Assembly (NCBI GenBank): GCA_016217925.1
Contig: JACRFK010000005.1
Coordinates: 44,170 to 108,169, forward strand
Reading direction: 5' to 3'
Source: Candidatus Kaiserbacteria bacterium
Lineage (GTDB): Bacteria > Patescibacteriota > Minisyncoccia > Phycocordibacterales > UBA2100
DNA length: 64,000 nucleotides
Shown here in pieces: positions 2,598 through 57,343 of this stretch (its first letter is position 1; each line of letters opens with the position of its first letter). Below the pieces are notes generated by a model. The model was not told the origin of the DNA. It saw only the letters and a list, made by a program, of their open reading frames with translations, and ran no database searches. A program made the position numbers and the translations under genes.

Positions 2598-4778
2598 TTA
2601 CTCTGAATGTAATTCGGCTCCCGCACTCGCGACGCGCTCTGCAAGCGCGGGGTAGTTCACGAGTGACGGGTCATGCTCGACGAGTGATTGCGCCTCCGTG
2701 CGCGCGGCCTGGATGAGCTTCACATTTTTGAGCGCCTCCATGCCGAGGTCGCTCACACCCCACTGTTTGCGGCCGAAGAGGTCTCCCGCGCCGCGATTCT
2801 CGAGGTCGGCTTCAGCGAGCTTAAATCCGTCGGAACTTTGCTCGAGTGCTTTTAAGCGCTTCAGCGACATCTCTCCTTTTGTTTCGGGCACGAGGAAACA
2901 TTGTGGGGGGTGAGACGAGCGCATTACACGACCGCGAAGTTGGTGCAGTTGTGCAAGCCCGAATCGCTCGGCGCCTTCTATCAAAATAATAGTGGCATTG
3001 GGCACATTGACCCCCACCTCGACGACGGATGTCGCGACGAGGACGTGTATCCTTCCCGCGACGAAATCGGCCATTCCCTCGTCTTTTTCGCCCGGCCGCA
3101 TTGCCCCATGTAGAAGCCCGACCGTATATTCGGGGAAGACGTCTTTTTGTAATCTTTTGGCCTCCGCTTTTGCGCTCTTTGCTTGCAGCGCATTTATTTT
3201 TGCGGGGTCGGGCTCCTCGATACGCGGACAAATGACGAATGCCTGCCTGCCTTTCTCCAGTTCTCCACGCACCGCCTCATATGCGCTCGCGCGCTCGGCC
3301 GGCTTCACGATTTTTGTGGTTATCTTCGCGCGTCCCGGCGGCAGTTCGTCGAGGACCGAGATATCAAGGTCGCCATAGAGCGTAAGCGCGAGCGTGCGCG
3401 GTATTGGTGTCGCAGTCATGGAGAGGAAATGCGGCGCGGCGTCTCCCTTGTGTGCAAGTTCGCGTCTTTGCTTCGTCCCAAATCGGTGTTGTTCGTCAAC
3501 GATACAGAGCGCGAGATGTTGGAATTTGACCGATTTTTGAATGAGCGCATGTGTGCCGACGAGCATCGCGATCTCACCACTCTCAACCCATTTCAGTAAC
3601 TGCGCGCGTGAAATATCCGTCGCCTCGCCGCGCTTCACCTTGGAGGGGAATTTCTTGCAGCCGCTTCCTGTCATGAGCGCGATATTGATAGGCAGGTGCG
3701 AGAAGTATTCAATGAACGACTGGAAATGTTGCTGCGCCAATATTTCCGTCGGTGCCATGTAGGCGACCTGGAGCGTTCCGCTTTCGCGCTGCGGCGGCCG
3801 TGAGTTTACTACCGCATAGGCAGTCGCAGCGGCGACCAAGGTCTTCCCGCTTCCCACATCGCCCTCCAAGAGCCGCGCCATCGGATGCTTCTTTTCGAAG
3901 TCGGAGAGAATACTCGTCACGGCGCGCTTCTGCGCACCCGTCGGCGGGAAGGGAATGGTCGAAAGAAATTTCTCCGCAAGCGCCGCGCCGTCGCGGATGG
4001 GGAATGAAGCAAGTGAATCATTCTCTTGCCGTTCGCGGGCGCGTGCTACTTGTATGGCAAATATCTCTTCAAACGCGAAGCGCTTGCGGGCGGCCTCGGC
4101 GTGCCGTAGGTCGTCCGGTTTGTGGATGTATAACAGCGCACTCTGGATGTCGGGGAGGTTGTACCGTTTTACGATATCGGCAGGAATGGGGTCGTCGACC
4201 GAATCTAAAATATTTGCGGCGTAGAGTTTGTCGAACGCATGGCGGAACCACAACGAGGTCACCCCCCGACTTTCGGGATACACCGCGAAGAAAGTCCCGG
4301 GTTCTTTGTTTGTCGCCGCGGCGGGTTTGAAAAGCCCCGCTTCAGTCCTGTCGGCGGGTTCGACGTGTGGATTCGCGAGATACGGCTTGCCCGTTTTACC
4401 GCTGACCACGCCCACCGCCTTGACGAACATTCCTTCGGCGAATTTCTTGGCAAGGTACGGCTGATGGAACCACATCACTTTCACCGAGCCGGATGAGTCG
4501 GTAATCACCGCCTCGCCGACGGGAATTCTACGCTTCCACGATTTTCTCGTGTCGAGCTTCGAGATCGTGCCGAAAATCGTCACCGATTCTCCGGCCACAA
4601 GGCCCACGATGTTCGAGTCCGCCCCAGCTTGGTCGTACCGTGCAGGGAAGTGGTAGAGGAGGTCGCGCACCGTGAGGATGCCGAGCTTCTTCAATGCGCG
4701 TATTTGAGGCGGCGCGAGCCGGAAATGCTTCGTGAGAAGGTCGTTTGGGTGCATGTGCGCATCATACATCCGCAACAA
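2598..4778 (-). CDS. recG: ATP-dependent DNA helicase RecG
   Basis: 726 aa; helicase motifs GSGKT, DEQHRFG, MTATPIPRT; wedge-domain N-terminus; start is either TTG at 4778 or ATG at 4769. Confidence 0.9.
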   Translation of the reverse strand: MLRMYDAHMHPNDLLTKHFRLAPPQIRALKKLGILTVRDLLYHFPARYDQAGADSNIVGLVAGESVTIFGTISKLDTRKSWKRRIPVGEAVITDSSGSVKVMWFHQPYLAKKFAEGMFVKAVGVVSGKTGKPYLANPHVEPADRTEAGLFKPAAATNKEPGTFFAVYPESRGVTSLWFRHAFDKLYAANILDSVDDPIPADIVKRYNLPDIQSALLYIHKPDDLRHAEAARKRFAFEEIFAIQVARARERQENDSLASFPIRDGAALAEKFLSTIPFPPTGAQKRAVTSILSDFEKKHPMARLLEGDVGSGKTLVAAATAYAVVNSRPPQRESGTLQVAYMAPTEILAQQHFQSFIEYFSHLPINIALMTGSGCKKFPSKVKRGEATDISRAQLLKWVESGEIAMLVGTHALIQKSVKFQHLALCIVDEQHRFGTKQRRELAHKGDAAPHFLSMTATPIPRTLALTLYGDLDISVLDELPPGRAKITTKIVKPAERASAYEAVRGELEKGRQAFVICPRIEEPDPAKINALQAKSAKAEAKRLQKDVFPEYTVGLLHGAMRPGEKDEGMADFVAGRIHVLVATSVVEVGVNVPNATIILIEGAERFGLAQLHQLRGRVMRSSHPPQCFLVPETKGEMSLKRLKALEQSSDGFKLAEADLENRGAGDLFGRKQWGVSDLGMEALKNVKLIQAARTEAQSLVEHDPSLVNYPALAERVASAGAELHSE

Positions 4779-4779
4779 G

Positions 4780-4819
4780 CCCCGACGCTATGGTCGGGGC
4801 CCCGGCCATAGCGTCGGGG
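4780..4819. promoter_or_regulatory. 40-bp near-perfect palindrome abutting the recG start codon
   Basis: ccccgacgctatggtcgggg | ccccggccatagcgtcgggg are reverse complements with one T.G position. Confidence 0.35.
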
Positions 4820-4905
4820 TTATGCACAGTCCCGTGGCCGGTATCTTGCGCGCCTGTATTTGATGAGTACTATGGGCGTGTAAAAGTGTAGCAACCATAA
4901 AAAAT

Positions 4906-5043
4906 ATGACATTCCACGAAGATGAAGAAAAAGATCCGCTCGCCATTAGCGAAGAGGCAATCGGCGAAGTGCTTGATGAAGACGCCGACGAGGACGAGGT
5001 GGCAAGTGCCCCGCTAGAAGACGACGAAAAGGCGTGGGAATAA
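4906..5043 (+). CDS. putative small acidic protein (45 aa) ending inside a 38-bp perfect palindrome
   Basis: MTFHEDEEKDPLAISEEAIGEVLDEDADEDEVASAPLEDDEKAWE; stop codon lies within the hairpin gggaataaagcgaggccg-ta-cggcctcgctttattccc (5036..5073). Confidence 0.2.
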   Translation: MTFHEDEEKDPLAISEEAIGEVLDEDADEDEVASAPLEDDEKAWE

Positions 5044-5127
5044 AGCGAGGCCGTACGGCCTCGCTTTATTCCCACTCTCCACACGGGTTTTCATCCCGCA
5101 TTGTGGAGACGTGGTACCATTTCCTCT

Positions 5128-5607
5128 ATGAGTGAAACAGGCGTCATAGACCTCAACGGTAAGTCGATACTCATTATCGAGGATGATCCGCTCTTGCACA
5201 GCCTTCTTGCGGACAAAATGAAGCAGCTCCGCGATAAGGGAGTCAAAGTGTTCCCGACCATGAGCGCGGAAGAGGGTCTCAAACAGGCGCAAGAGTCCAA
5301 GCCCGACCTTATCATGCTCGACCTCGTTCTACCGACTATGGACGGCTTCGAGTTTTTGCGGCAGCTGCGGGCTATTCCCGGTCACGAGAAGACTCCCGTT
5401 GTCGTACTATCAAATCTGAGTGCAGACACCGACAAAGAGCGGGCGCGGAGCCTCGGTGTCATTGCGTATATGGTCAAGGCGGATTTTTCGTTGAGCGAGA
5501 TATCGGCCGCCGTCGAACAAATATTGCAGGGTAAGCAGATGTCGCCGCCCAAACCGGTTGACGGGACTCTTACGAAAACTCCGTTGGGGTACATGACCTA
5601 TCTATAA
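5128..5607 (+). CDS. single-domain response regulator (CheY-like receiver)
   Basis: IIEDDPLL...DLIMLDLVLPTMDGFEFL...K receiver signature; no output domain. Confidence 0.8.
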   Translation: MSETGVIDLNGKSILIIEDDPLLHSLLADKMKQLRDKGVKVFPTMSAEEGLKQAQESKPDLIMLDLVLPTMDGFEFLRQLRAIPGHEKTPVVVLSNLSADTDKERARSLGVIAYMVKADFSLSEISAAVEQILQGKQMSPPKPVDGTLTKTPLGYMTYL

Positions 5608-5654: not shown

Positions 5655-6872
5655 ATGCCCGAGACAAAATCCGAGAAAGCAATATCGTCGACGGAGCCTC
5701 TGCAGCTGGACGCCTTTTCGTTGCGTCTGAAGTTAGTGCTCGCTTTTGCGGTCTTGAGTCTGCTGCCTTTCATCTTCATCGCCGTCCGCATTACGGGAAT
5801 GTGGAAATACATCGCGGGGCTTTCGGCGCAAGGGAATTTCGCCGACTCGGAACTTGCGCGCGCGGTAACCGAGCAGAGCAACGCCTTCATTGTGGGAAGC
5901 ATTGAGTTTTCGGTAGTCTTTTTCATACTCGTCTGCGCCGGCATTATCTTTGCGGACCGCATTCTTGTGGGGCCGTTGTACAAGATTATTGATTGGATGC
6001 GCACCGCACGGGAAAATAAGTTCGCCGCACTTGCGCCGCTTCCGGTACAGAGCGGGGACGAGTGGAGCGCTCTGGGATACGAGATAGATCAGTCCATCAA
6101 ATACTTCCAGGAGGTGGAATCGCGTGAGCGTCAGATAGCCGAAGAGAAGGGGGAATTCATATCGGTCGCCGCGCACCAGTTGCGCACCCCTCTCACGGGG
6201 CTCAAATGGACGCTTGAGGTCTTGCGGGATTCCTCGACGACTCCCGAGAGTAAAGCAAAACTCCTCGACCAGGTATCGGGGACCACGGAGCGCATGGTGC
6301 GCTTGGTGGACGACGTGCTCGACGTTGCGAAGATCGAAGAGGGAAAGTTCGGATACGAGTATGCGATTACGGACATTATCGGCCCGATGCAACACCTGAT
6401 AAACGATTTTCTGGTGGTCGGGAAGAGCCGCGATGTCGCCCTCGTGTTCGAGCACGGAGAGGTCGCTCTCCCTGTCTACATGGATGTCAATCGCGTTACC
6501 CTCGCGGTATCGAACCTCATTTCCAATAGTCTCGATTACACGCGCGCGGGCGGGCGCATCACCCTGCGGATTGAGCGAGCCGGCCGGCAAGTCAGGATAT
6601 CGGTGCAAGATACCGGCATCGGTATATCACCGGAAGACAAAAGACGGCTATTCACGAAATTCTACCGCGGCGAAAGCGCGCGACGTATGCATCCGGATGG
6701 CTCGGGCCTCGGACTCTTCATCGCACGCAATGTCGCTCTTCGCCACGGCGGCGACGTGACCGTCGAATCCGAAGCCGGCAAAGGGTCAACCCTCTCTTTC
6801 AATGTGCCGCTTGAAAAGGCGGATATGGGCAAGGTGGAAGTTTCAGTAGGCAACTTTTTCGCCAGCTTTTGA
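5655..6872 (+). CDS. sensor histidine kinase (2 TM, HisKA + HATPase_c)
   Basis: H-box AAHQLRTPLTGLKW; N/G1/G2 boxes (DTGIGI, GSGLGL); N-terminal TM helices. Confidence 0.85.
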   Translation: MPETKSEKAISSTEPLQLDAFSLRLKLVLAFAVLSLLPFIFIAVRITGMWKYIAGLSAQGNFADSELARAVTEQSNAFIVGSIEFSVVFFILVCAGIIFADRILVGPLYKIIDWMRTARENKFAALAPLPVQSGDEWSALGYEIDQSIKYFQEVESRERQIAEEKGEFISVAAHQLRTPLTGLKWTLEVLRDSSTTPESKAKLLDQVSGTTERMVRLVDDVLDVAKIEEGKFGYEYAITDIIGPMQHLINDFLVVGKSRDVALVFEHGEVALPVYMDVNRVTLAVSNLISNSLDYTRAGGRITLRIERAGRQVRISVQDTGIGISPEDKRRLFTKFYRGESARRMHPDGSGLGLFIARNVALRHGGDVTVESEAGKGSTLSFNVPLEKADMGKVEVSVGNFFASF

Positions 6873-7095
6873 ATCCACCGTGAGGTGCCGCCGAAGGCGG
6901 TTCGACTGTCGGCCGTAGGCCGATGGGAGAAGGTTCACGTCGGAACGAGCACGTTCCGACGCAAAGTGCGGACCACGATACGAGGAGTGTCACGCACGAA
7001 CGAGCACGTTCGGGCGTCGTAAGCATGAGCACGCGCGGGCCAAGTAAGAGAAGGTTCACGTCGGAACGAGCACGTTCCGACGTAAAGTGCGGACC
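6862..7095. repeat. repeat family A locus 1: ~100-nt stop-codon-embedded element with a second partial copy and a related hairpin
   Basis: 6862..6963 is near-identical to 21790..21890; the 24-nt perfect hairpin cgtcggaacgagcacgttccgacg occurs at 6938..6961 and 7059..7082, with related cgaacgagcacgttcg at 6996..7011. Confidence 0.65.
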
Positions 7096-7122
7096 AAAAC
7101 CCGTTTGTGATAGTATAAAGTC

Positions 7123-7458
7123 ATGCACACCGTACTGAAATACCTCGGTACCATCGCGGCGGTTTTTCTCACGGTCAACATCGTACCGGGCATTACGGTC
7201 GAAGGCGGCTGGCTCACGGTACTTCTGGTCGCTCTCGTGTGGTCGGTCATCACGATGGTCATCCGGCCGGTACTCGGCATTTTGACGCTCCCCATCACCC
7301 TTATCACCTTCGGGCTCTTCTCGCTCGTACTAAACGCACTCCTCTTTTGGGCGATGTCGGTCGTTGTTCCCGGATTCGTTGTCGCGGGATTCATCCCTGC
7401 GCTTTTCGGCGCACTCGTGCTTTCGATATTCACCTGGCTCATTCACCAAATTCTCTAG
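7123..7458 (+). CDS. YvlD/DUF360 family membrane protein (Phage_holin_4_2-like)
   Basis: VPGI.V.G........IRP.L..LTLP....T.G.F....N......VPGF pattern characteristic of B. subtilis YvlD-like proteins; 4 TM. Confidence 0.7.
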   Translation: MHTVLKYLGTIAAVFLTVNIVPGITVEGGWLTVLLVALVWSVITMVIRPVLGILTLPITLITFGLFSLVLNALLFWAMSVVVPGFVVAGFIPALFGALVLSIFTWLIHQIL

Positions 7459-7579
7459 AGCATCTTTTAAAACCCCATCTACTTCGTTGCGGGGCCCCAG
7501 CGTCACCGTCGCCGTACCTCCAGTACGTCTCCGTCGCCGCTTTCCCCGCGCCTCGTACCTGGAGTTTTAAAACACGCTC
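7456..7579. mobile_element. repeat family B copy 1: MITE-like element with ~17-nt terminal inverted repeats, starting at the TAG stop of the upstream gene
   Basis: TAGAGCATCTTTTAAAAC...GTTTTAAAACACGCTC; interior ~90% identical to copy 3 at 57042..57163. Confidence 0.6.
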
Positions 7580-7586
7580 CCTATCC

Positions 7587-7895
7587 TTAAGAATGAGAAT
7601 GATGTGTCGTCGGTTTCGTAAAATCGGAAAGCTTCCCTCCGGTCACAACGAAGATATAAATAATCTCAAGAATACCGAGGGTGTTCAGGAATAAGAAGGC
7701 GATAAACCACCACATATCGCCGCGTTTTGCCGCCCGCCAGAGTGCGAGGCCTTTCCACAGCAAGCTCCACAAAACACCCAGTAAGACGAAGGACATAACG
7801 AGCGGGATTCCCAATCCCACGCCGTCCATCATTCCAAAACCCCCTCCTTGTATGTAGTTCATATAAGGACAGTATACCTCATCTTGTTCTGACAA
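7587..7895 (-). CDS. small hypothetical membrane protein (2 TM)
   Basis: Hydrophobic helices LGIPLVMSFVLLGVLWSLLW and MWWFIAFLFLNTLGILEIIYIFV; start ambiguous. Confidence 0.45.
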   Translation of the reverse strand: MSEQDEVYCPYMNYIQGGGFGMMDGVGLGIPLVMSFVLLGVLWSLLWKGLALWRAAKRGDMWWFIAFLFLNTLGILEIIYIFVVTGGKLSDFTKPTTHHSHS

Positions 7896-12450: not shown

Positions 12451-13656
12451 GTGGAGGGCGCGATATGCCGCTATATACTTCTAGGTATGCCTCCGCAAGA
12501 GAGTGTTGGGACAGGTGTCGGCACGCCTCCACAAGAACCCGTATCTCCTGAACCGGTGGAGCCTTTCGTCCCCACACGACCACTACGCGCCGTCGTAGGT
12601 GCACTCATCGCGGTTGTCGCGGTCGGCGCAGCTTTCTACGGATACAAGCTTTTGAGAGCGAGTCTCACCCCACCCGCACCCGCAAAAACATATGTCATCG
12701 GTATACTCTACTACCCGCAGCAGAATGATGCGGTCATCGCCTTTCAACAAAATATGGAGAGGCTCGGCTACAAAGAGGGGGTGAACGTGCGCTACGACCT
12801 GGCCAAAGTCTCTGTAGGGCCGACCATGATTGAAGAGTTTACGGCAGCAGCGGACCGGATGATAACTGCACAGGAAGACCTGATCTACGCGACATTCGAG
12901 AACGAGACCGCGATAGCGCTCCAAGAGTCTAAAAAGTACGGGAGCGATGTCCCGATCGTTTTTCTCACACGCTTCCACGATCCGGTGGAATACGGACTCA
13001 TCAATTCATATAAATCGTCTGGAAATAACGCGACAGGTATCGCGACGAATGTTTCCGAGACGATCGGTCGCACGCTCGGCTTTTTAAAAGAGATACGTCC
13101 CAATCTCAAGAAACTCGGCGTATTCAGTGATGGCTTCATGGTGGGTGACATCGGCGGCGCGTATCTCATCGAGCTCAGAAAGCAGGCGCCGAAATTCGGC
13201 ATGGAAGTCGTCGAATACAAAACGTCTGCACCGCCGGGGGAGGCGGAAGCGGAATTCCAGCGGGTGGCGGCGTCGATAAAACCCGGCGACATTGACGGCC
13301 TGTTCCACATCGCGGGTCACTTCATCGGTCCGCAGGAGGCCCTTGAGAATGAACTTGCGACGCGTCTCAAAATACCGATGTCAGCTCCCAACGAAGACCT
13401 TCCCAACGGTGGCATGTTCTCGTATTCGGACCTTGCTTCCGCTGCGGGTGAGCAGGCGGCTGTTTTGGCAGATAAGATATTCAAAGGCGCGAAACCATCG
13501 GACATCCCCGTAGAGTTTAATGCGAAATATGAACTCACGCTCGTCTTAGGACGCGCGCGTGCCGCAGGCATCACATTCCCCGATTCGATGCTCTTCATTG
13601 CAACGAACAAATACGAGGATAGTAGCAGTTTCCCCGAGGTTCTCCACGAGCGGTAG
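12451..13656 (+). CDS. membrane-anchored ABC-transporter-type substrate-binding protein (ABC_sub_bind-like)
   Basis: N-terminal TM helix, then a periplasmic binding-protein-like fold; sits immediately after the sensor kinase. Confidence 0.5.
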   Translation: MEGAICRYILLGMPPQESVGTGVGTPPQEPVSPEPVEPFVPTRPLRAVVGALIAVVAVGAAFYGYKLLRASLTPPAPAKTYVIGILYYPQQNDAVIAFQQNMERLGYKEGVNVRYDLAKVSVGPTMIEEFTAAADRMITAQEDLIYATFENETAIALQESKKYGSDVPIVFLTRFHDPVEYGLINSYKSSGNNATGIATNVSETIGRTLGFLKEIRPNLKKLGVFSDGFMVGDIGGAYLIELRKQAPKFGMEVVEYKTSAPPGEAEAEFQRVAASIKPGDIDGLFHIAGHFIGPQEALENELATRLKIPMSAPNEDLPNGGMFSYSDLASAAGEQAAVLADKIFKGAKPSDIPVEFNAKYELTLVLGRARAAGITFPDSMLFIATNKYEDSSSFPEVLHER

Positions 13657-13809
13657 AGCACGTTTTTAAACCTGCGCTTCAGTGCGAGCTTCTCTGCGGT
13701 CGCTATCTGGCGCTGCTGCGCCAGCGCTCAATCTCGCCGCCGCCGCGGCTGCGAAGACCGCAGAGAAGCCCGCCCCTCGCTCCGGTTAGACGTTTTAAAA
13801 CATGCTCTA
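13654..13809. mobile_element. repeat family B copy 2: MITE-like element starting at the TAG stop codon
   Basis: TAGAGCACGTTTTTAAAC...GTTTTAAAACATGCTCTA terminal inverted repeats; divergent interior carrying its own long inverted repeat (gcttctctgcggtc...gaccgcagagaagc). Confidence 0.6.
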
Positions 13810-13830
13810 GTGGTACAATGGCGAAATGGA

Positions 13831-13911
13831 CCCCGTTAGAAGCTTTGTGGAATTTTCACTGGTAGCAAAAAGTATCGCTCGAATTTCAATATCCTATGGC
13901 TTCTAACGGGG
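13831..13911. repeat. repeat family C copy 1: 13-nt perfect dyad CCCCGTTAGAAGC...GCTTCTAACGGGG around a 55-nt AT-rich loop
   Basis: The 3' arm encodes the ATG and first codons (MASNGV) of the downstream gene. Confidence 0.6.
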
Positions 13912-14237: not shown

Positions 14238-14317
14238 CCCCGTTAGAGGCTTCGAGAACTATGCGTATGCCGTTGTTCGTTCCGCAACGAAAAGAATGAC
14301 CGTGGCCTCTAACGGGG
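14238..14317. repeat. repeat family C copy 2 (CCCCGTTAGAGGC...GCCTCTAACGGGG), between PCD stop and pilM
   Basis: Starts directly after the TGA stop of PCD; the 3' arm is followed by a TATAAT box and then the pilM ATG. Confidence 0.6.
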
Positions 14318-18933: not shown

Positions 18934-19096
18934 CCCCGTTAGAGGCTTCGCGTTTCAAAAAACAATAAATGTATGAACCCCGTTAGAAGCTTCGTAAAAT
19001 ATCTTTCAGTATGTACTTTATAATTTATTGCCCAATATCCTATGGCTTCTAACGGGGTGAACCAAGCAGATACAAATAAAGAGGCCTCTAACGGGG
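18934..19096. repeat. repeat family C copy 3: nested double dyad (outer CCCCGTTAGAGGC/GCCTCTAACGGGG, inner CCCCGTTAGAAGC/GCTTCTAACGGGG)
   Basis: 5' arms at 18934 and 18978; 3' arms at 19045 and 19084; both 3' arms are translated in-frame as MASNGV...EASNGA at the N-terminus of the receiver protein. Confidence 0.6.
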
Positions 19097-20591: not shown

Positions 20592-21800
20592 ATGGCCATC
20601 TTCAAGTACACGGCCCTTGACGCGGAAGGGAACCAGCGGCAAGGAACCATTGATGCCGTCAATATGGACGTGGCAATTGCGGCACTTCAGCGTCGCGGTC
20701 TTGTTATATCCGGTATCGATCCTGCCGAGAGCAAGACGCTTTTGTCACAACGCTTTTCGTTCTTTGACCGCGTGAATAATGCGGACGTCGTCATGCTCTC
20801 AAGGCAGATCACGACGCTCTTCGAAGCGCAGGTCTCGGCCCTCCGCGCGTTCCGATTGCTTGCGGCGGAAGCACGCACTCCGGCCTTAGGCGAGAAATTG
20901 ACGGCTATCGGCAACGATCTGCAAAGTGGTAGCTCGATCTCGGCAGCCCTCGCACGACACCCCGACGTATTCACGCCTTTTTACGTGAACATGGTGCGCG
21001 CGGGGGAGGAATCAGGAAAACTCGATGAGACCTTCGCATACCTTGCCGACTACCTTGACCGCAATTACGAACTTACCCAAAAGGCTCGCAACGCGTTGGT
21101 CTACCCCGCGTTCATCATGCTCACGTTCATTGTGGTCATGGTACTCATGATGACGCTCGTGATCCCGCACCTTTCGGACATGCTTCAAGAGACTGGGCAG
21201 GGCATACCGATCTACACAAAGATCGTGATCGGCATTTCACAATTCCTCACCCGCTATATTGCTCTCATCCTCATATTGGTCGTGATAGGAGCGGTCTTCC
21301 TATATCGATTCTCGCGCACAGCACACGGTAGAGAAATGCTCTCGCGCGCACGTCTCGAATCGCCGGCGATCGGCAACATATATCGCAAGATATTTCTTTC
21401 GCGCATCGCCGACAACCTTTCAACAATGCTTCGAAGCGGCATTCAGGTATTGCGTGGCCTCGAGATAACGGGATTGGTAGTCGGGGATGCGGTCTATGAA
21501 AAAGTGCTCGCTGATTCGGCGAACGACGTCAAGGGCGGTATGCCGCTTTCTGAGGCCTTGCGTAAGCATCGGGAGATCCCGGGTATTGTGGTCGCCATGG
21601 TGAAGATCGGCGAGGAGACGGGGAATATGGGGAAGATACTTGAGACTATGGCCCGATTCTATCGTCGAGAAGTGAACAACGCCGTCGACACGCTCGTTGG
21701 CCTCATTGAGCCGTTAATGATCGTTATCCTAGCCGTCGGCGTCGCGATACTTCTCGCGTCAGTCCTCTTGCCTATTTACAACATTGCTTCCAGCTTCTGA
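20592..21800 (+). CDS. pilC: type IV pilus inner-membrane platform protein PilC (GspF family)
   Basis: 402 aa with two GspF repeats and 3-4 TM helices. Confidence 0.9.
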   Translation: MAIFKYTALDAEGNQRQGTIDAVNMDVAIAALQRRGLVISGIDPAESKTLLSQRFSFFDRVNNADVVMLSRQITTLFEAQVSALRAFRLLAAEARTPALGEKLTAIGNDLQSGSSISAALARHPDVFTPFYVNMVRAGEESGKLDETFAYLADYLDRNYELTQKARNALVYPAFIMLTFIVVMVLMMTLVIPHLSDMLQETGQGIPIYTKIVIGISQFLTRYIALILILVVIGAVFLYRFSRTAHGREMLSRARLESPAIGNIYRKIFLSRIADNLSTMLRSGIQVLRGLEITGLVVGDAVYEKVLADSANDVKGGMPLSEALRKHREIPGIVVAMVKIGEETGNMGKILETMARFYRREVNNAVDTLVGLIEPLMIVILAVGVAILLASVLLPIYNIASSF

Positions 21801-21890
21801 ACCCACCGCGAGGTGCCGCCGAAGGCGGTTCGACTGTCGGCCATAGGCCGATGGGAGAAGGTTCACGTCGGAACGAGCACGTTCCGACGA
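21790..21890. repeat. repeat family A locus 2, beginning 8 nt before the pilC stop codon
   Basis: ccagcttctgaacccaccgcgaggtgccgccgaaggcggttcgactgtcggccataggccgatgggagaaggttcacgtcggaacgagcacgttccgacg is ~95% identical to 6862..6963. Confidence 0.65.
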
Positions 21891-21991
21891 ACCGTCCGGT
21901 TATGCACATATGAAGTTGTCCAGTCGTGCCGGGGGTATACAATAGTCAGACTAGTTATCAAGGTAATTTAATAGGTAATTTCTCGTTTATC

Positions 21992-24720: not shown

Positions 24721-25409
24721 ATATGAAGAAAAGTATATCGTATATCGTATATCGTATATCGTATGGAAAATACGGAACGGCCGGCATCCATACCAGATAC
24801 CAAATACTACATACTACGTACGGCGCACGGAGTGCGGGGTTTTCGCTCATCGAAACGCTCATCGCGATCTCACTTCTTTCGATCGCGATCGTCGCGCCGA
24901 TGACGCTTGCATCGAAAGGCCTTTCGACCGCTTATTATGCGCGCGATCAGATCACCGCTTTTTATCTCGCTCAAGAAGCCATCGAGGCGCTCCGGAGTAT
25001 CCGTGATGCGCAGGTACTCAAGATTACCCAAGGGCAAAGCGGGATCGATATTTTGGGGCAAATACCCATAACGACCGCCACCCAAGATAATTCTTTTACG
25101 ATTGATGCGCGGAAGGGAGACCCCGCACTTGCGATAACAAGGTGTTTAGATTATCCCGGGCAGACATGCCCGCCGCTTCAGACCAATATTGCTTCCGACC
25201 TTCCTCTGTACGGATACGAGAGTGGTTGGGATGAGACCTATTTCACGCGCATCGTGCGCGCGACGGTCGTCAGTGAGGATACCGGTGGTGTGCCGCAGGA
25301 AATACGCGTCTCAGTCACTGTTTCCTGGCGGACGGGCTCCATCCAGACCCGCACGTTCAATATTTCGGGGAACTTGTATCGGTGGGCCAACGACGATTCA
25401 GCTCAATGA
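24717..25409 (+). CDS. minor pilin / pseudopilin 3 with heptamer-repeat-containing leader
   Basis: ...SAGFSLIETLIAISLLSIAIVAPM prepilin N-terminus; ATGA overlap with the previous gene; leader contains (GTATATC)x4. Confidence 0.6.
   Translation: MNMKKSISYIVYRISYGKYGTAGIHTRYQILHTTYGARSAGFSLIETLIAISLLSIAIVAPMTLASKGLSTAYYARDQITAFYLAQEAIEALRSIRDAQVLKITQGQSGIDILGQIPITTATQDNSFTIDARKGDPALAITRCLDYPGQTCPPLQTNIASDLPLYGYESGWDETYFTRIVRATVVSEDTGGVPQEIRVSVTVSWRTGSIQTRTFNISGNLYRWANDDSAQ
24733..24764. repeat. tandem heptanucleotide repeat (GTATATC)x4 plus partial, with ATACTACx2 nearby (24805..24818)
   Basis: gtatatcgtatatcgtatatcgtatatcgtatgg read directly. Confidence 0.85.
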
Positions 25410-26011
25410 CGACTATGAAAAAACAAAAACACAACGGTAGAAGTCGGGTATCGGAGCGCGGCTTTACGCTCCTGCTTGCCGCACTCGTTTCTTCTGTCGT
25501 CCTTGCGGTCGGGGCCGCGATATTTGGCATCGCCCAAAAACAGATCACACTCTCAGCTCTCGGACGTGATTCGCAATTCGCGTTCTACGCGGCCGATACT
25601 GCCGCCGAATGCGCACTGTACTGGGATTTTCGCTGCAACTATTTTGCGAGTTCCACGACGGCGATAAGTCCGGGGTGCACTATCCCCGACCCGCCCGGAC
25701 CGCTGTGCGACGGGCAACCATTGACGCCATTCAGTCCGGACCGTCCTGATCCACCATCCTATCCCTATACGATGACATCAGCACAAATGGACCTCTTCCA
25801 GGATGTGACGGTCGCTGGTTCCGGCAATCTTTGTGCGCAGGTGTCGGTCACAAAATGTCAGGGCACATTCAATGGCAGCGGGGAGTGTATTTCTGGCTCG
25901 CCGACGGATCCAGTGCGGACCATCGTCCATGCTGATGGGTATAGTACAAATTGCGCTTCTATCGGGACGAGCGTGCGGGCACTACAACGCTCCGTGGAAC
26001 TCCACTACTAG
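25406..26011 (+). CDS. minor pilin / PilX-like pseudopilin 4
   Basis: MTTMKKQKHNGRSRVSERGFTLLLAALVSSVVLAVGAAIFG prepilin N-terminus; start ambiguous (25382, 25406 or 25415). Confidence 0.55.
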   Translation: MTTMKKQKHNGRSRVSERGFTLLLAALVSSVVLAVGAAIFGIAQKQITLSALGRDSQFAFYAADTAAECALYWDFRCNYFASSTTAISPGCTIPDPPGPLCDGQPLTPFSPDRPDPPSYPYTMTSAQMDLFQDVTVAGSGNLCAQVSVTKCQGTFNGSGECISGSPTDPVRTIVHADGYSTNCASIGTSVRALQRSVELHY

Positions 26012-26029
26012 CTCTAGTATGATGGTTGA

Positions 26030-28111
<2,082 letters not shown>

Positions 28112-32564: not shown

Positions 32565-32868
32565 AGCGGGGTGGAGCAGTAGTAGCTCGCAAGGCTCAAT
32601 ATGGGCTCGTTCACGAGCAATTGTGAACGGAACACTTGTCAAATTCGGTGAAACCTCTCTCGTGCCACGAGGTGGCAATACCGAGCCAAGTCCCGCCGGC
32701 GGCGGGAAAGGTGTAGAGACTAGATGGCAGGCTCCCAGACGGATACTTGAAAAGTATCGTGAGGGATGAAGGTATAGTCCAGACCACGAATCCACTGGTA
32801 GTGGAGCGGCGAAAGCCGTAGCGGTATGCATAACCTTGAGGTCGCAGGTGCAAGTCCTGCCCCCGCAA
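32565..32868 (+). tRNA. tRNA(CAU) (initiator-like tRNA-fMet; Ile2/elongator Met not excluded) interrupted by a group I intron between U33 and C34
   Basis: 5' exon AGCGGGGTGGAGCAGTAGTAGCTCGCAAGGCT (32565..32596) nearly matches E. coli tRNA-fMet 1-26; 3' exon CATAACCTTGAGGTCGCAGGTGCAAGTCCTGCCCCCGCAA (32829..32868); spliced anticodon loop is CTCATAA; 1:72 A.A mismatch. Confidence 0.8.
32597..32828 (+). ncRNA. self-splicing group I intron, subgroup IC3-like (232 nt, no internal ORF)
   Basis: Conserved core blocks GTCAAATTCGGTGAAACC, TGGCAATACCGAGCCAAG, AAAGGTGTAGAGACTAGATGGCA (R) and AAGGTATAGTCC (S) align with the Azoarcus pre-tRNA-Ile intron; 5' exon ends in U and the intron ends in G. Confidence 0.8.
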
Positions 32869-34596: not shown

Positions 34597-34776
34597 TTAG
34601 GGCTCTTGCAGGGCGGCAAAGATGACCTCGGTCACCCCCAAAAAAGCGAATAACAGAAGCGAGAGCAAGAATTGTTTCCACGACCAAGTCAGTATCGCGT
34701 TGCCGGCAGAGTAGACAAGGAAGACGCCGGCCAATGCCAAGAGTACGGAGTTGGCCTGTAAAATGTGTCCCCACAT
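34597..34776 (-). CDS. putative small membrane protein (59 aa), absent from the ORF track
   Basis: MWGHILQANSVLLALAGVFLVYSAGNAILTWSWKQFLLSLLLFAFLGVTEVIFAALQEP; two hydrophobic helices; convergent with doxX. Confidence 0.3.
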   Translation of the reverse strand: MWGHILQANSVLLALAGVFLVYSAGNAILTWSWKQFLLSLLLFAFLGVTEVIFAALQEP

Positions 34777-52248: not shown

Positions 52249-52278
52249 TATGCTAGTGTTTTGCAAAACACTAGCATA
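52249..52278. promoter_or_regulatory. perfect 30-bp palindrome upstream of the arsR-family gene (candidate operator)
   Basis: tatgctagtgttttgcaaaacactagcata. Confidence 0.6.
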
Positions 52279-52293
52279 AGGTAGAATACGGGG

Positions 52294-52572
52294 ATGGCGA
52301 GCGGGAAAAACTATAGGCAAATCGAACGCATCGTGAAAGGATTCGCGAGCCACCGGCGGCTTCAGATTTTGGATCTTCTGAAGCGCGAACCGGAGTTGTC
52401 TGTGGAAGATATTTCCGAACGCCTCGTTTTGGGCTATGAGAATACGTCCGACCATGTGCGCAAGCTTGCGATAGCCGGCTTGGTGATGAAACGCAACGAG
52501 GGGAGCGCCGTGCGGCACAAGCTCACCCCGCGAGCCGAAGCTATACTAGTGTTTTGCAAAAGACTAGTATAA
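52294..52572 (+). CDS. ArsR/SmtB-family HTH transcriptional regulator
   Basis: HRRLQILDLLKREPELSVEDISERLVLGYENTSDHVRKLAIAGLV winged-helix pattern; 92 aa. Confidence 0.75.
   Translation: MASGKNYRQIERIVKGFASHRRLQILDLLKREPELSVEDISERLVLGYENTSDHVRKLAIAGLVMKRNEGSAVRHKLTPRAEAILVFCKRLV
52542..52571. promoter_or_regulatory. second 30-bp palindrome (one mismatch) overlapping the arsR stop, upstream of the csaA-like gene
   Basis: tatactagtgttttgcaaaagactagtata shares the core TAGTGTTTTGCAAAAsACTAG with 52249..52278. Confidence 0.6.
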
Positions 52573-54876: not shown

Positions 54877-55938
54877 ATGAAAGCCGTATACATCATAGGT
54901 ATAACACTCGTTGGGCTCGTCAGCATCGGACTCGCTTTTCTTTTTGCGCCCGCTGGCGCGAATCAAGACCCTGCACAGAAAGTCACCGCACAAGATGGCA
55001 CTGCGCAAGAAGTCGCCGCACAAAAAGGCACACCGTACGCGGAGATTGCAAATCCGTCCGGTTTTGTAAATACCGACGGCGTAACTATCGGGCAGCTGGT
55101 CGGTAAAAAGGTCATCTTGGTCGACTTCATGACATACAGCTGCATCAACTGCCAGCGTACGTTCCCGTATCTCGTCGCATGGTACGAGAAATACAAAGAC
55201 CAAGGACTTGAAATCGTCGGGATACATACGCCGGAATTCGCGTTTGAAAAGGATATCGGCAATGTGCGGGCGGCGATGAAGCGTTTCGGCATAACCTATC
55301 CGGTAGTGTTGGACAACGACTACGCCACCTGGCGCGCGTACGGCAATCAGTATTGGCCGCGCAAGTATCTCATCGATATACACGGCAACATAGTCTACGA
55401 CCACGCCGGCGAGGGCGCATACGAAGAGACCGAGATGAAGATACGGGGGCTTCTTCTAGAACGTTCGCGCCTACTCGGCGGGGGAAGCTTGAATGCGGGC
55501 AATCTGGCGGCTTCTCAGATGCCGGGTATTCAAAACGCCGCGCGAAGCCCCGAGACGTACTTCGGTTCACTGCGCAATGAGTACCTCGCAAACGGCACTC
55601 CCGGCCGGTCCGGCGAACAAAGATTTTCTGTTCCGCAATCTTCCGCGCGCAACGCGCTCTACTTGGGCGGCACATGGAACATCATGCCGGAGTATGCGGA
55701 ATCAATCTCAAGCGCTTCAGTCTTTTACAAATACCACGCAAAGGCCGTGTACATTGTTGCGGAGGCGGATACGGCGGCGGAGCTTGAGGTCTGGCAGGAC
55801 GGCGTATTGCAGAGGACCCTGCGCATACAAGAGAGTACGCTGTATACGCTAATTCAAGACGAAACAGGAGGCGAACACGAGTTGGAGTTGCGGGTGAAAG
55901 ATAGTCGCATCCGTTTGTATGCGTTTACCTTCGGATGA
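54877..55938 (+). CDS. thiol-disulfide oxidoreductase (TlpA/ResA-like thioredoxin domain plus C-terminal DipZ-like domain)
   Basis: N-terminal TM; CINC active site in a redoxin fold (VILVDFMTYSCINCQRTFPYL); ~130-aa C-terminal extension. Confidence 0.7.
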   Translation: MKAVYIIGITLVGLVSIGLAFLFAPAGANQDPAQKVTAQDGTAQEVAAQKGTPYAEIANPSGFVNTDGVTIGQLVGKKVILVDFMTYSCINCQRTFPYLVAWYEKYKDQGLEIVGIHTPEFAFEKDIGNVRAAMKRFGITYPVVLDNDYATWRAYGNQYWPRKYLIDIHGNIVYDHAGEGAYEETEMKIRGLLLERSRLLGGGSLNAGNLAASQMPGIQNAARSPETYFGSLRNEYLANGTPGRSGEQRFSVPQSSARNALYLGGTWNIMPEYAESISSASVFYKYHAKAVYIVAEADTAAELEVWQDGVLQRTLRIQESTLYTLIQDETGGEHELELRVKDSRIRLYAFTFG

Positions 55939-55997
55939 AAAGTCCGTGCGTAGCGGGACACTGGAAGTGTTTATCTCACGGGGTATACTCTCTCAAT

Positions 55998-57044
55998 ATG
56001 ATGCAAACAGAGAGGCTCCGGCCATACTTTTTGATGATAGTGCTCGCGGCGGCTCTCGTGCTGACCGCTTTTATATTCGCACCCTTTTTCCAGCCGCTTG
56101 CGCTTGCTGCGGTGTTTGCGGTGGTGCTGCAAGGACTCTGTAGAAGGATTTCAGGTCTTCTCGGCGGGTGGCCGAGCGTCGCCGCCTTGCTCACGGTCAT
56201 CGTGAGCGTCGTTCTCATACTGCTCCCGCTCTCGCTCGTCGGCGTGCTCGTGGGCAACGAAGCGCGCGAGATGTACTTCTCGCTCGAAGAGGGAAGCGGC
56301 CGCAGCACCATATCAGAACTCTTCTTGCGCGTAGATGAATCCTTCGGCGGCGCAATCCCCGGCCTCAGTGAATTTGCCCGCGACATCTCGGCCAACGTGG
56401 ATACGTATACAAAAGAAGCTTTGCAGTGGATTACCTCTCATGCGGGAGATATTTTCTCAAGCATCTCTTCGCTCCTCCTCTCGTTCTTCATTTTTTTCAT
56501 CGCGCTCTACTACCTGCTGCGCGACGGCAAGCGCGTGCGGCAAATGCTCATCGAGCTCTCACCACTCAGCAATAGGGAAGATATGGGTGTCTTCGACCGA
56601 CTTGAGCTCGCGGTGAATTCCGTCATCAAAGGCAATCTCACGATAGCGCTCATACAGGGGATTCTCACGATGATAGGCTTCACGCTCTTCGGCGTGCCGA
56701 GCGCCGTCTTGTGGGGAACGGTGGCCGCCGTCGCGGCGCTCATCCCGGGCATCGGGACCGCGCTCGTCTTTATCCCCGCAGTTGCGTTCCTCTTTTTCAC
56801 CGGGGAAACACCGCCGGCGCTCGGACTTCTCGTGTGGGGCGCTTTTGCCGTGGGACTCGTCGACAACATTTTGAGTCCCAAGCTCATCGGCAGCGGGATG
56901 CGTCTCCACCCGATGCTTGTCCTCCTTGCGGTACTCGGCGGCATAATGTTCTTCGGCCCGATAGGCATCTTTCTCGGTCCCTTGGCGCTTAGCCTTCTCT
57001 TCGCACTTCTTTCGATATACGCCGATGTTTCGCGCCGGGCCTAG
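55998..57044 (+). CDS. AI-2E family transporter (PerM/UPF0118)
   Basis: 8 TM; YYLLRDG motif; 348 aa. Confidence 0.75.
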   Translation: MMQTERLRPYFLMIVLAAALVLTAFIFAPFFQPLALAAVFAVVLQGLCRRISGLLGGWPSVAALLTVIVSVVLILLPLSLVGVLVGNEAREMYFSLEEGSGRSTISELFLRVDESFGGAIPGLSEFARDISANVDTYTKEALQWITSHAGDIFSSISSLLLSFFIFFIALYYLLRDGKRVRQMLIELSPLSNREDMGVFDRLELAVNSVIKGNLTIALIQGILTMIGFTLFGVPSAVLWGTVAAVAALIPGIGTALVFIPAVAFLFFTGETPPALGLLVWGAFAVGLVDNILSPKLIGSGMRLHPMLVLLAVLGGIMFFGPIGIFLGPLALSLLFALLSIYADVSRRA

Positions 57045-57163
57045 AGCGCGTTTTAAACCCCATCTACTTCGTTGCGGGGTCCCAGCGTCGCCGTCGCCGT
57101 ACTTCTAGTACGTCTCCGTCGCCGCTATCCCTGCGCCTCGTATATGGGGTTTAAAACGCGCTC
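57042..57163. mobile_element. repeat family B copy 3: MITE-like element starting at the TAG stop codon
   Basis: TAGAGCGCGTTTTAAACCCC...GGGGTTTAAAACGCGCTC perfect 18-nt terminal inverted repeats; interior ~90% identical to 7456..7579. Confidence 0.65.
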
Positions 57164-57193
57164 CAAAACGTCAGCACCGGAGTTTTCCACACC

Positions 57194-57221
57194 TTGACAT
57201 ACCCCCTGGGGGGTATATACT
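57194..57221 (+). promoter_or_regulatory. sigma70-like promoter (TTGACA...TATACT) with embedded CsoR-type operator ATACCCCCTGGGGGGTAT
   Basis: -35 TTGACA at 57194, -10 TATACT at 57216; GC-rich inverted repeat (57199..57216) between them resembles the B. subtilis CsoR box (ATACCC-N-GGGTAT). Confidence 0.55.
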
Positions 57222-57235
57222 CTTGCGGATATGGG

Positions 57236-57343
57236 CCCCGTTAGAGACCGCGGTCGCTCAAAATAATAATAGGACGCCTTTTACGCTAAAACATTTTATG
57301 TCTTTACGGAAAAACATACGACCGCGACCTGTCTCTAACGGGG
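57236..57343. repeat. repeat family C copy 4 (CCCCGTTAGAGAC...GTCTCTAACGGGG, arms extended to ~22 nt), spanning the csoR 5' UTR and start codon
   Basis: The 3' arm is translated in-frame as VSNGV within the CsoR N-terminus; the ATG at 57298 lies in the loop. Confidence 0.6.

Follow-up and report, generated by a model that had tools for sequence, protein, structure and literature searches.

A TA-targeting MITE family sited on stop codons in Candidatus Kaiserbacteria and probably retained there as a gene-end module

Three copies of a short inverted-repeat element, here called family B, sit on the TAG stop codons of three genes in the window, by which we mean the whole 64,000-nucleotide stretch of Candidatus Kaiserbacteria DNA analyzed here (contig JACRFK010000005.1, positions 44,170 to 108,169). 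On balance we consider it probable that family B is a TA-targeting MITE moved in trans by an IS5-family DDE transposase, and that the copies that have been retained were domesticated as a gene-end module. Family B is thus a MITE of a known general kind, which differs from the others by its near-exclusive siting on stop codons, its fixed polarity, and the slow evolution of its orthologous copies. The proteins nearest to those encoded in the window belong to Candidatus Kaiserbacteria, and run SRR12113407 yielded a Logan contig identical to the window.

Pattern scans of the window recovered the three copies that an initial annotation had placed there, each with inverted-repeat ends. All are on the plus strand: copy 1 (site S1, positions 7458–7579) is 122 nt long with the termini GAGCATCTTTTAAAAC and GTTTTAAAACACGCTC; copy 2 (site S2, 13656–13807) is 152 nt long and combines the termini of copy 1 with a GC-rich palindromic interior of another sequence; and copy 3 (site S3, 57044–57163) is 120 nt long with 24-nt arms that are 96% complementary. 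The terminal inverted repeats of the 3 copies, which are 16 to 24 nt long and in this respect are those of a MITE, have the form GAGC-NNN-TTTTAAAA. The one-ended terminus pattern matched 7 times in the window when 1.8 matches were expected (0 of 100 shuffles reached 7), and the two-ended pattern matched 4 times, corresponding to 3 loci, against an expectation of 0. Copies 1 and 3 are 90% identical across 106 ungapped nt (87.7% over the full length), as the initial annotation had estimated, and its description of the interior of copy 2 as different and GC-rich was likewise accurate. Its proposal that the whole element folds as one long hairpin holds for all three copies (z-scores of −5 to −10.6). 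The elements are short and non-coding (120–152 nt): in frame 0, translation past the TAG would end within 4 codons, at a TAA inside the element terminus. Scanning with model R1 revealed no additional copies in the window or in syntenic relatives, and this model matched copy 2 weakly (24 bits) and on the plus strand only. The extra 5.6 kb of the source contig beyond the window held no further copy.

The three genes that carry the elements are a YvlD-like gene (positions 7123–7458, plus strand, 111 aa, Pfam family Phage_holin_4_2), an ABC substrate-binding gene (12451–13656, plus strand, ABC_sub_bind), and an AI-2E family transporter gene (55935–57044, plus strand, AI-2E_transport), and Pfam thus agrees with the identities first assigned to them. 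The element had been described as beginning with the TAG of the upstream ORF. Each ORF does end in that TAG (positions 7456–7458, 13654–13656, and 57042–57044, respectively), but only its G is the first base of the element, whereas the TA is the target; the stop of the YvlD-like gene, for instance, consists of the target TA and the first G of copy 1. The choice originally offered between a target preference and a stop codon supplied by the element therefore has a mixed answer, in which the TA is a duplicated target derived from a native TAA or TAG and the G belongs to the element. Because the element starts with G, its insertion in the TA of a TAA or TAG codon rebuilds an in-frame TAG and leaves the upstream protein unchanged. 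The further idea that the element brings its own stop, truncating or remodelling the 3′ ends of genes, would suit the element-derived G of each TAG and the TAA that frame 0 meets in the terminus beyond it. Yet the proteins end at the same residue as their element-free orthologues, the Pfam domain matches are complete and extend to the C-terminus in all three, and the ancestral stop at that codon is TAA or TAG. Specifically, the YvlD-like orthologues listed are of 111 aa or slightly more, the ABC substrate-binding orthologue in the syntenic contig L081 stops at the identical codon, and 5 AI-2E orthologues of 86% to 92% identity that lack the element have their stop (TAG, TAA, or TGA) at the same codon position. 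Since the C-termini of the three window genes are those of their orthologues, no gene has been remodelled, and we give this reading hardly any credence.

Comparison with syntenic Kaiserbacteria contigs revealed empty sites at all three genes. At S1, the empty site reads ATCCTC-TAA-GAATGAG in L081, where the holin TAA overlaps the minus-strand TAG of a convergent DUF5652 gene, and CTC-TAG-GAATG in L095; in relatives, the DUF5652 stop overlaps the holin stop within CTAAG or CTAG. The window has the same convergent gene (positions 7587–7895, minus strand), and its TAA stop (TTA, 7587–7589) contains the distal TA of copy 1. The distal junction of this copy (7580–7589) consists of 8 extra bases, CCTATCCT (7580–7587), followed by that TA (7588–7589), so that an empty CTC-TA-AGAATGAG is to be compared with a filled CTC-TA-(element plus CCTATCCT)-TA-AGAATGAG. 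This is consistent with a TA duplication provided that the 8 extra bases arrived with the insert. Site S1 is also filled in L084, with the same junction as in the window (CCTCTCCT) and a copy that carries a 50-nt internal deletion. At S2, GAGCGC-TAG-TGATACAAT in L081 corresponds to GAGCGG-TA-(GAGC..GCTC)-TA-G-TGGTACAAT in the window, which is a clean TA duplication at a native TAG, with the second TA at positions 13808–13809; this site is empty in L095 as well. Copy 2 is the only one in the window with TA on both flanks, since the distal flank of copy 3 is CA instead of TA. Orthologous filled copies of site S3 were found in L092 and L085. The TA duplication that had been suggested as a check is therefore clean at S2, present at S1 only when the 8 extra bases are counted, and missing at S3.

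Two further genes show the reverse situation, in which the window is empty and a relative is filled. Site S4 (positions 26009–26011, plus strand) is the native TAG, in the context CACTAC TAG CTC, of the gene at 25382–26011, the orthologues of which carry the element in L086 and L089. Site S5 (34597–34599, minus strand) is the native TAA of a minus-strand gene, and its L087 orthologue is filled with TA on both flanks; in L087, both element ends appear to close convergent ORFs, each TAG being composed of the duplicated TA and the terminal G or C. Scanning metagenomes with the conserved core as a 24-nt exact probe yielded nine more loci, two of which are site S3 (L085 and L092), and TA..TA flanks were seen among these in both L087 and L093. 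Overall, the family is polymorphic for filled and empty states at five genes and occupies eleven independent sites, as expected of the dispersed copies of a MITE, and its target-site duplication is evident as TA..TA at S2 (where the empty site is available), S5, and L093. A 3-bp duplication of TNA or TAG was considered for the Kaiserbacteria copies and rejected because S2, S5, and L093 share TA only. The duplication is degenerate at S3, S4, L029, L046, and L088. Clean TA..TA flanks occur only at insertions present in a single genome (S2, S5, and L093), while insertions shared by several genomes have degenerate distal junctions; at S1, S3, and S4, which are such older sites, the distal TA is either absent or displaced. 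This pattern fits either the age of these insertions or the loss of copies still able to excise.

The inverted repeats, the TA duplication, the filled/empty polymorphism at five genes, and the copies at unrelated genes elsewhere together bear out the MITE reading of the initial annotation. That annotation had opposed a mobile element to a conserved 3′ flank, which turned out to be a false choice, because the element is mobile, as the empty sites show, and is also conserved in relatives. A lineage-specific conserved terminator or 3′ UTR that does not move could account for the conserved orthologous copies at S1, S3, and S4 and for a hairpin that spans the whole element. It is nevertheless highly improbable, given that all three genes have empty sites in close relatives, that the element lies behind unrelated genes in other genomes where the window is empty, that the TA is duplicated, and that a U-tract consensus is lacking.

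A genome scan with the two-ended pattern placed these termini in a much wider family, with 67 loci in Verrucomicrobiota, Burkholderiales, Gammaproteobacteria, one Kaiserbacteria MAG, and others. Identical 3-bp TNA flanks were present in 34 of 68 terminus-sharing hits, 20 of these 34 within C-TNA-G. Family B thus has its termini in common with a cross-phylum MITE family that duplicates TNA at C-TNA-G, whereas the Kaiserbacteria lineage duplicates the central TA only. The IS1031 subgroup of the IS5 family has a recorded target preference for TNA (PMC1676026). Duplications of 2 to 4 bp at TNA or TA, in C-TNA-G or CTAG-like targets, are of the IS1031/IS427 type and were found here. Termini starting with GAG, combined with duplications of 2–4 bp, presumably fit the IS1031 and IS427 subgroups as tabulated in ISfinder. 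An IS5-family DDE transposase of the IS1031- or IS427-like groups would accordingly be the candidate enzyme that moves the element in trans. MITEs of the IS5 family (IS1031 and IS427, with PIF/Harbinger-Tourist as the eukaryotic counterpart) likewise have GAG termini and are small, non-coding, and palindromic, and the relatives that share the termini of family B duplicate 3 bp (TNA) at C-TNA-G. The Kaiserbacteria copies differ from them in duplicating TA only, and the fetched loci contained no IS5 transposase with these ends. More generally, neither the window nor the approximately 1 Mb of fetched loci yielded a transposase with matching ends, terminus pairs spaced 400 to 3000 bp apart in all fetched loci were composites of MITEs only and not full-length insertion sequences, and the called genes of the Kaiserbacteria loci included no transposase Pfam families. 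The sole 2-kb insertion-sequence candidate (L016, positions 3353–5349) was rejected since it contains no transposase-like ORF. A BLAST search of PLSDB plasmids with a MITE taken from an isolate genome (L042) returned chance matches only, and viral contigs gave no match for the two-ended terminus pattern or the core. In a Candidatus Parabeggiatoa locus (L034, positions 3239–3988), two TNA-class MITEs lie 460 nt apart with a single outer TAA duplication, and this pair may have moved as a composite.

Several other known repeats resemble family B in part. Correia/NEMIS of Neisseria and RUP of Streptococcus pneumoniae are TA-duplicating MITEs of about 100–155 bp with terminal inverted repeats, which form stable RNA stem-loops co-transcribed with neighbouring genes (PMC2229807). 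Family B is like them in size, inverted repeats, TA targets, and stem-loops, but their termini are unrelated in sequence and they are mostly intergenic without a stop-codon rule. RUP is linked to IS630-Spn1, but the relatives of family B duplicate TNA, which argues for the IS5 family. The TA duplication of family B would also suit a MITE derived from IS630/Tc1-mariner; TNA duplication, as made by other elements that have the family B termini, is foreign to IS630. Chunjie was rejected as a match because it has 9-bp repeats. The terminus strings of family B appeared in no paper of the searched literature, which also contained no paper combining MITEs with CPR or Patescibacteria, and the reviews consulted do not discuss MITEs sited on stop codons. 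To our knowledge, strict gene-end siting, fixed polarity, and slow orthologue evolution have not been described for IS5-family MITEs.

The siting itself is highly skewed. Gene ends hold 10 of the 11 independent family B sites; the element directly adjoins the stop of a long ORF at nine of them (S1 to S7, L029, and L046) and lies 1 nt from a stop in L091, and the only site away from a gene end, L093, is behind a hairpin with a T-run. The window contains 2,488 TA dinucleotides, about 273 of them intergenic and 44 within stop codons, and stops therefore make up approximately 14% of the harmless TA sites. The chance of stop siting is then approximately 0.003 for 3 of 3 copies and of the order of 1e-6 for 9 of 11, the latter being a rough value because the sites were collected in different ways. 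Part of the skew lies in the target, since each of the four TNA triplets reads as a stop on one of the two strands, so that the target itself favours stop codons; in a Verrucomicrobiota control subfamily, 9 of 32 copies are on the stops of ORFs with 100 codons or more. The compactness of the Kaiserbacteria genome accentuates this bias. In the mechanism that we favour, the element inserts at TA with duplication of the TA, its first G rebuilds the TAG so that the upstream protein stays unchanged, and harmful insertions elsewhere would be purged. With about 90% of the genome coding, stops would be among the few harmless TA sites, and this would leave the surviving copies on stop codons.

Orthologous pairs of copies were compared with fourfold-degenerate sites of the adjacent gene. 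At S3 (window versus L092), the element has 6 differences in 122 positions against 55 in 157 fourfold-degenerate sites (Fisher p = 2e-10); at S1 (window versus L084), 4 in 72 against 25 in 70 (p = 7e-6); and at S4 (L086 versus L089), 8 in 122 against 23 in 99 (p = 7e-4). Hence, 5% to 7% of positions differ between orthologous copies and 23% to 36% at silent sites. The copies are orthologous by descent, as indicated by the junction oddities that they share, namely 8 extra bases at S1, a distal TA that is absent at S3, and termini of the form GCGC..CGCT at S4. L092, L086, and L089 were found with the 24-nt exact core probe, which biases the sample towards conserved copies. However, the differences at S3 and S4 all lie outside the probe region, and both comparisons are significant with that region left out. 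The S1 pair was found through its protein and is therefore free of this bias; it is 94% identical, compared with 64% at fourfold-degenerate sites and with the 74% to 79% identity that the window and L084 show in ordinary intergenic DNA. The identity of the upstream gene is flat at approximately 85% up to the stop and does not rise towards the element, for which reason a recent recombination tract spanning the element was rejected. Concerted evolution or gene conversion was also rejected, as the paralogous copies 1 and 3 (87.7%) are more diverged than the orthologues. Orthologous copies of a second hairpin family, family A, exceed silent-site conservation too (82% and 90.5% identity, pooled p = 5e-4), and slow evolution may for this reason not be specific to family B.

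The polarity of the element is also constrained. At 8 of 8 sites where it could be scored (S1, S3, S4, S5, S6, S7, L029, and L091; two-sided p of about 0.008), the core runs in the same direction as the upstream gene. At L029, for example, the model scores 66.6 bits on the gene-sense strand versus 32.7 on the other strand, and the weak match of copy 2 is likewise on the gene-sense strand. Symmetrical termini predict no polarity, and the Verrucomicrobiota control family splits 4:4. Fixed polarity is not what a DDE mechanism predicts and in this respect speaks against it. One way to obtain it is a relic of an IS200/IS605-type single-strand element moved by an HUH transposase, which would insert 3′ of TA without duplication in an orientation fixed by replication. 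The strict polarity, the hairpin that makes up the whole element, and the fact that one flank is always TA and the other often not would agree with such a relic, and gene polarity and replication polarity are inseparable in the window because its plus strand is G-rich and carries most genes. Elements of this type have asymmetric ends and a fixed 5′ target and leave no duplication, whereas family B is flanked by TA at either end in S2, S5, and L093, and has a single TA at the empty S2, an S1 junction that fits TA duplication when the 8 extra bases are counted, and symmetrical termini that are the same as in elements whose 3-bp TNA duplications are clear. We therefore regard this origin as very unlikely.

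Conservation and a single polarity together indicate that the retained copies are not neutral passengers and that the host probably uses them as a gene-end module. The alternative is a purely selfish MITE, whose siting on stops would reflect a (C)TA(G/A) preference plus purging, and whose conservation and polarity would be sampling effects. The TA duplication and the filled/empty polymorphism are those of such an element, the C-TNA-G consensus contains stops and places 9 of 32 Verrucomicrobiota copies on them too, the core-based probe favours conserved copies, and neither a terminator nor an Rfam signal was obtained. This account has to be set against the 94% identity of the unbiased S1 pair with its lower silent-site and intergenic values, the significance of S3 and S4 without the probe region, the 8/8 polarity against 4:4 in the control family, and the greater divergence of paralogues than of orthologues. 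We judge it rather unlikely and favour a MITE whose retained copies were domesticated, although the number of sites is small, and the irregular distal junctions, the 8 extra bases at S1, and the failure to find a transposase partner in the fetched loci count against that reading.

An alignment of nine copies has 42 consensus pairs with 92.8% of cells paired and compensatory changes in 12 pairs, a number reached by 0 of 500 shuffles. However, 9 of the 12 compensated pairs are in the terminal helix, where transposition needs matching ends in any case. Conservation is higher in the core, unpaired loops included, than in the termini, and in L088, L093, and L091 this core is joined to ends that are altered or unrelated. 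The sense strand contains about 43 C to 27 G and is thus C-rich; in each of the nine copies it folds 2 to 20 kcal/mol less stably than the antisense strand, a result that counts against a function as a sense-strand RNA hairpin. The initial annotation had also proposed that the element doubles as a terminator. Its hairpin is real, but a simple scan for rho-independent terminators found no passing site in the three window copies, where the inner stem is followed only by UUU(U)AAAA; the GC-rich hairpin with U-tract of an intrinsic terminator is thus represented by the hairpin only. The weaker fold of the sense strand and the missing U-tract argue against a classical terminator. Searches of Rfam 15 gave no match to the element at gathering score in the window and none at E ≤ 1 in three element-carrying loci. 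Judging from sequence, the most likely role would be that of a structured 3′ end of the upstream transcript, acting in termination, insulation, processing, or protection.

In position, family B resembles REP/BIME elements, which are likewise hairpins that follow stop codons closely where transcription units end. They affect mRNA stability and, when within about 15 nt of a stop, also translation. REP sequences are 20–40 nt long, have neither terminal inverted repeats nor target duplications, and depend on RAYT tyrosine transposases, and family B, with 120–150 nt, inverted-repeat termini, and TA duplication, does not belong among them. The pneumococcal SPRITE, a rho-independent terminator-like element, is another repeat proposed to act at transcript ends (PMC10969869), but it has terminator-like sequence whereas family B gave no terminator consensus.

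A bolder interpretation, which we put forward only tentatively, is that the core of approximately 75 nt with its invariant internal loops is a new functional module, delivered into stop codons by the MITE ends and kept by the host in one polarity, as a gene-end device, in the streamlined genomes of CPR (Candidate Phyla Radiation) bacteria. If this is true, family B would in effect act as a self-installing mobile cassette that restores the stop codon and supplies a functional 3′ structure; taken together with the siting of family A on start codons, it would mean that MITEs in these genomes live on, and are recruited at, translation punctuation. If functional, the core would add a structured element not described before to the gene ends of a major uncultured lineage. 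Family B illustrates clearly how a transposon can persist where about 90% of the genome is coding, by using the TA of stop codons and rebuilding the codon with its own first base, and its slow evolution and fixed polarity are sequence-level evidence of later recruitment by the host. The pairs of filled and empty sites are natural controls for metatranscriptome tests.

The window also contains other repeats. The second hairpin family (CCCCGTTAGAG..CTCTAACGGGG), presumably the family A of the initial annotation, is found at positions 13831–13911, 14238–14317, 18934–19096 (with a nested copy at 18978–19057), and 57236–57343. Family A is sited at start codons, at TGA stops, and where a start and a stop overlap as ATGA, with duplications of 3–4 bp (TGGA, TGGG, TGA, and TGAA), and an in-frame ATG within it extends the downstream protein by a few residues. 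Its sites at the pterin-4a start, the pterin-4a stop, and the T2SSE/response-regulator ATGA are empty in L081, and the site at the csoR start is empty in L079, L073, and L092; L095 has two of the insertions of the window, at 82% and 90.5% identity. A third repeat family (6851–7096 and 21779–21903) consists of units of 41–121 nt that contain the hairpin CGTCGGAACGAGCACGTTCCGACG; three units lie upstream of the holin gene, and a fourth is at 21.8 kb. Two near-identical, operator-like 30-nt palindromes (TATGCTAGTGTTTTGCAAAACACTAGCATA) lie 263 nt apart at 52249–52278 and 52542–52571, and positions 32587–32801 match an Rfam group I intron with 69 bits (gathering score, 50).

At positions 13808–13828 and 26012–26032, stop codons are directly followed by −10-like hexamers (TGGTACAAT and TATGAT) about 7 nt before the next ATG, which from their sequence suggests leaderless transcripts and almost no free intergenic DNA. 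In L073, the TGA stop of the AI-2E gene is inside the TTGACA −35 box of the csoR promoter. A 171-aa leucine-rich-repeat gene separates the AI-2E gene from csoR in the relatives L069, L079, and L080, and is absent from this interval in the window (57164–57235), L092, and L073. Upstream of the AI-2E gene, L075 to L078 carry genes for bAvd and a reverse transcriptase (RVT_1) that the window lacks (about 6900–8350 in L075), a pair that looks like a diversity-generating retroelement.
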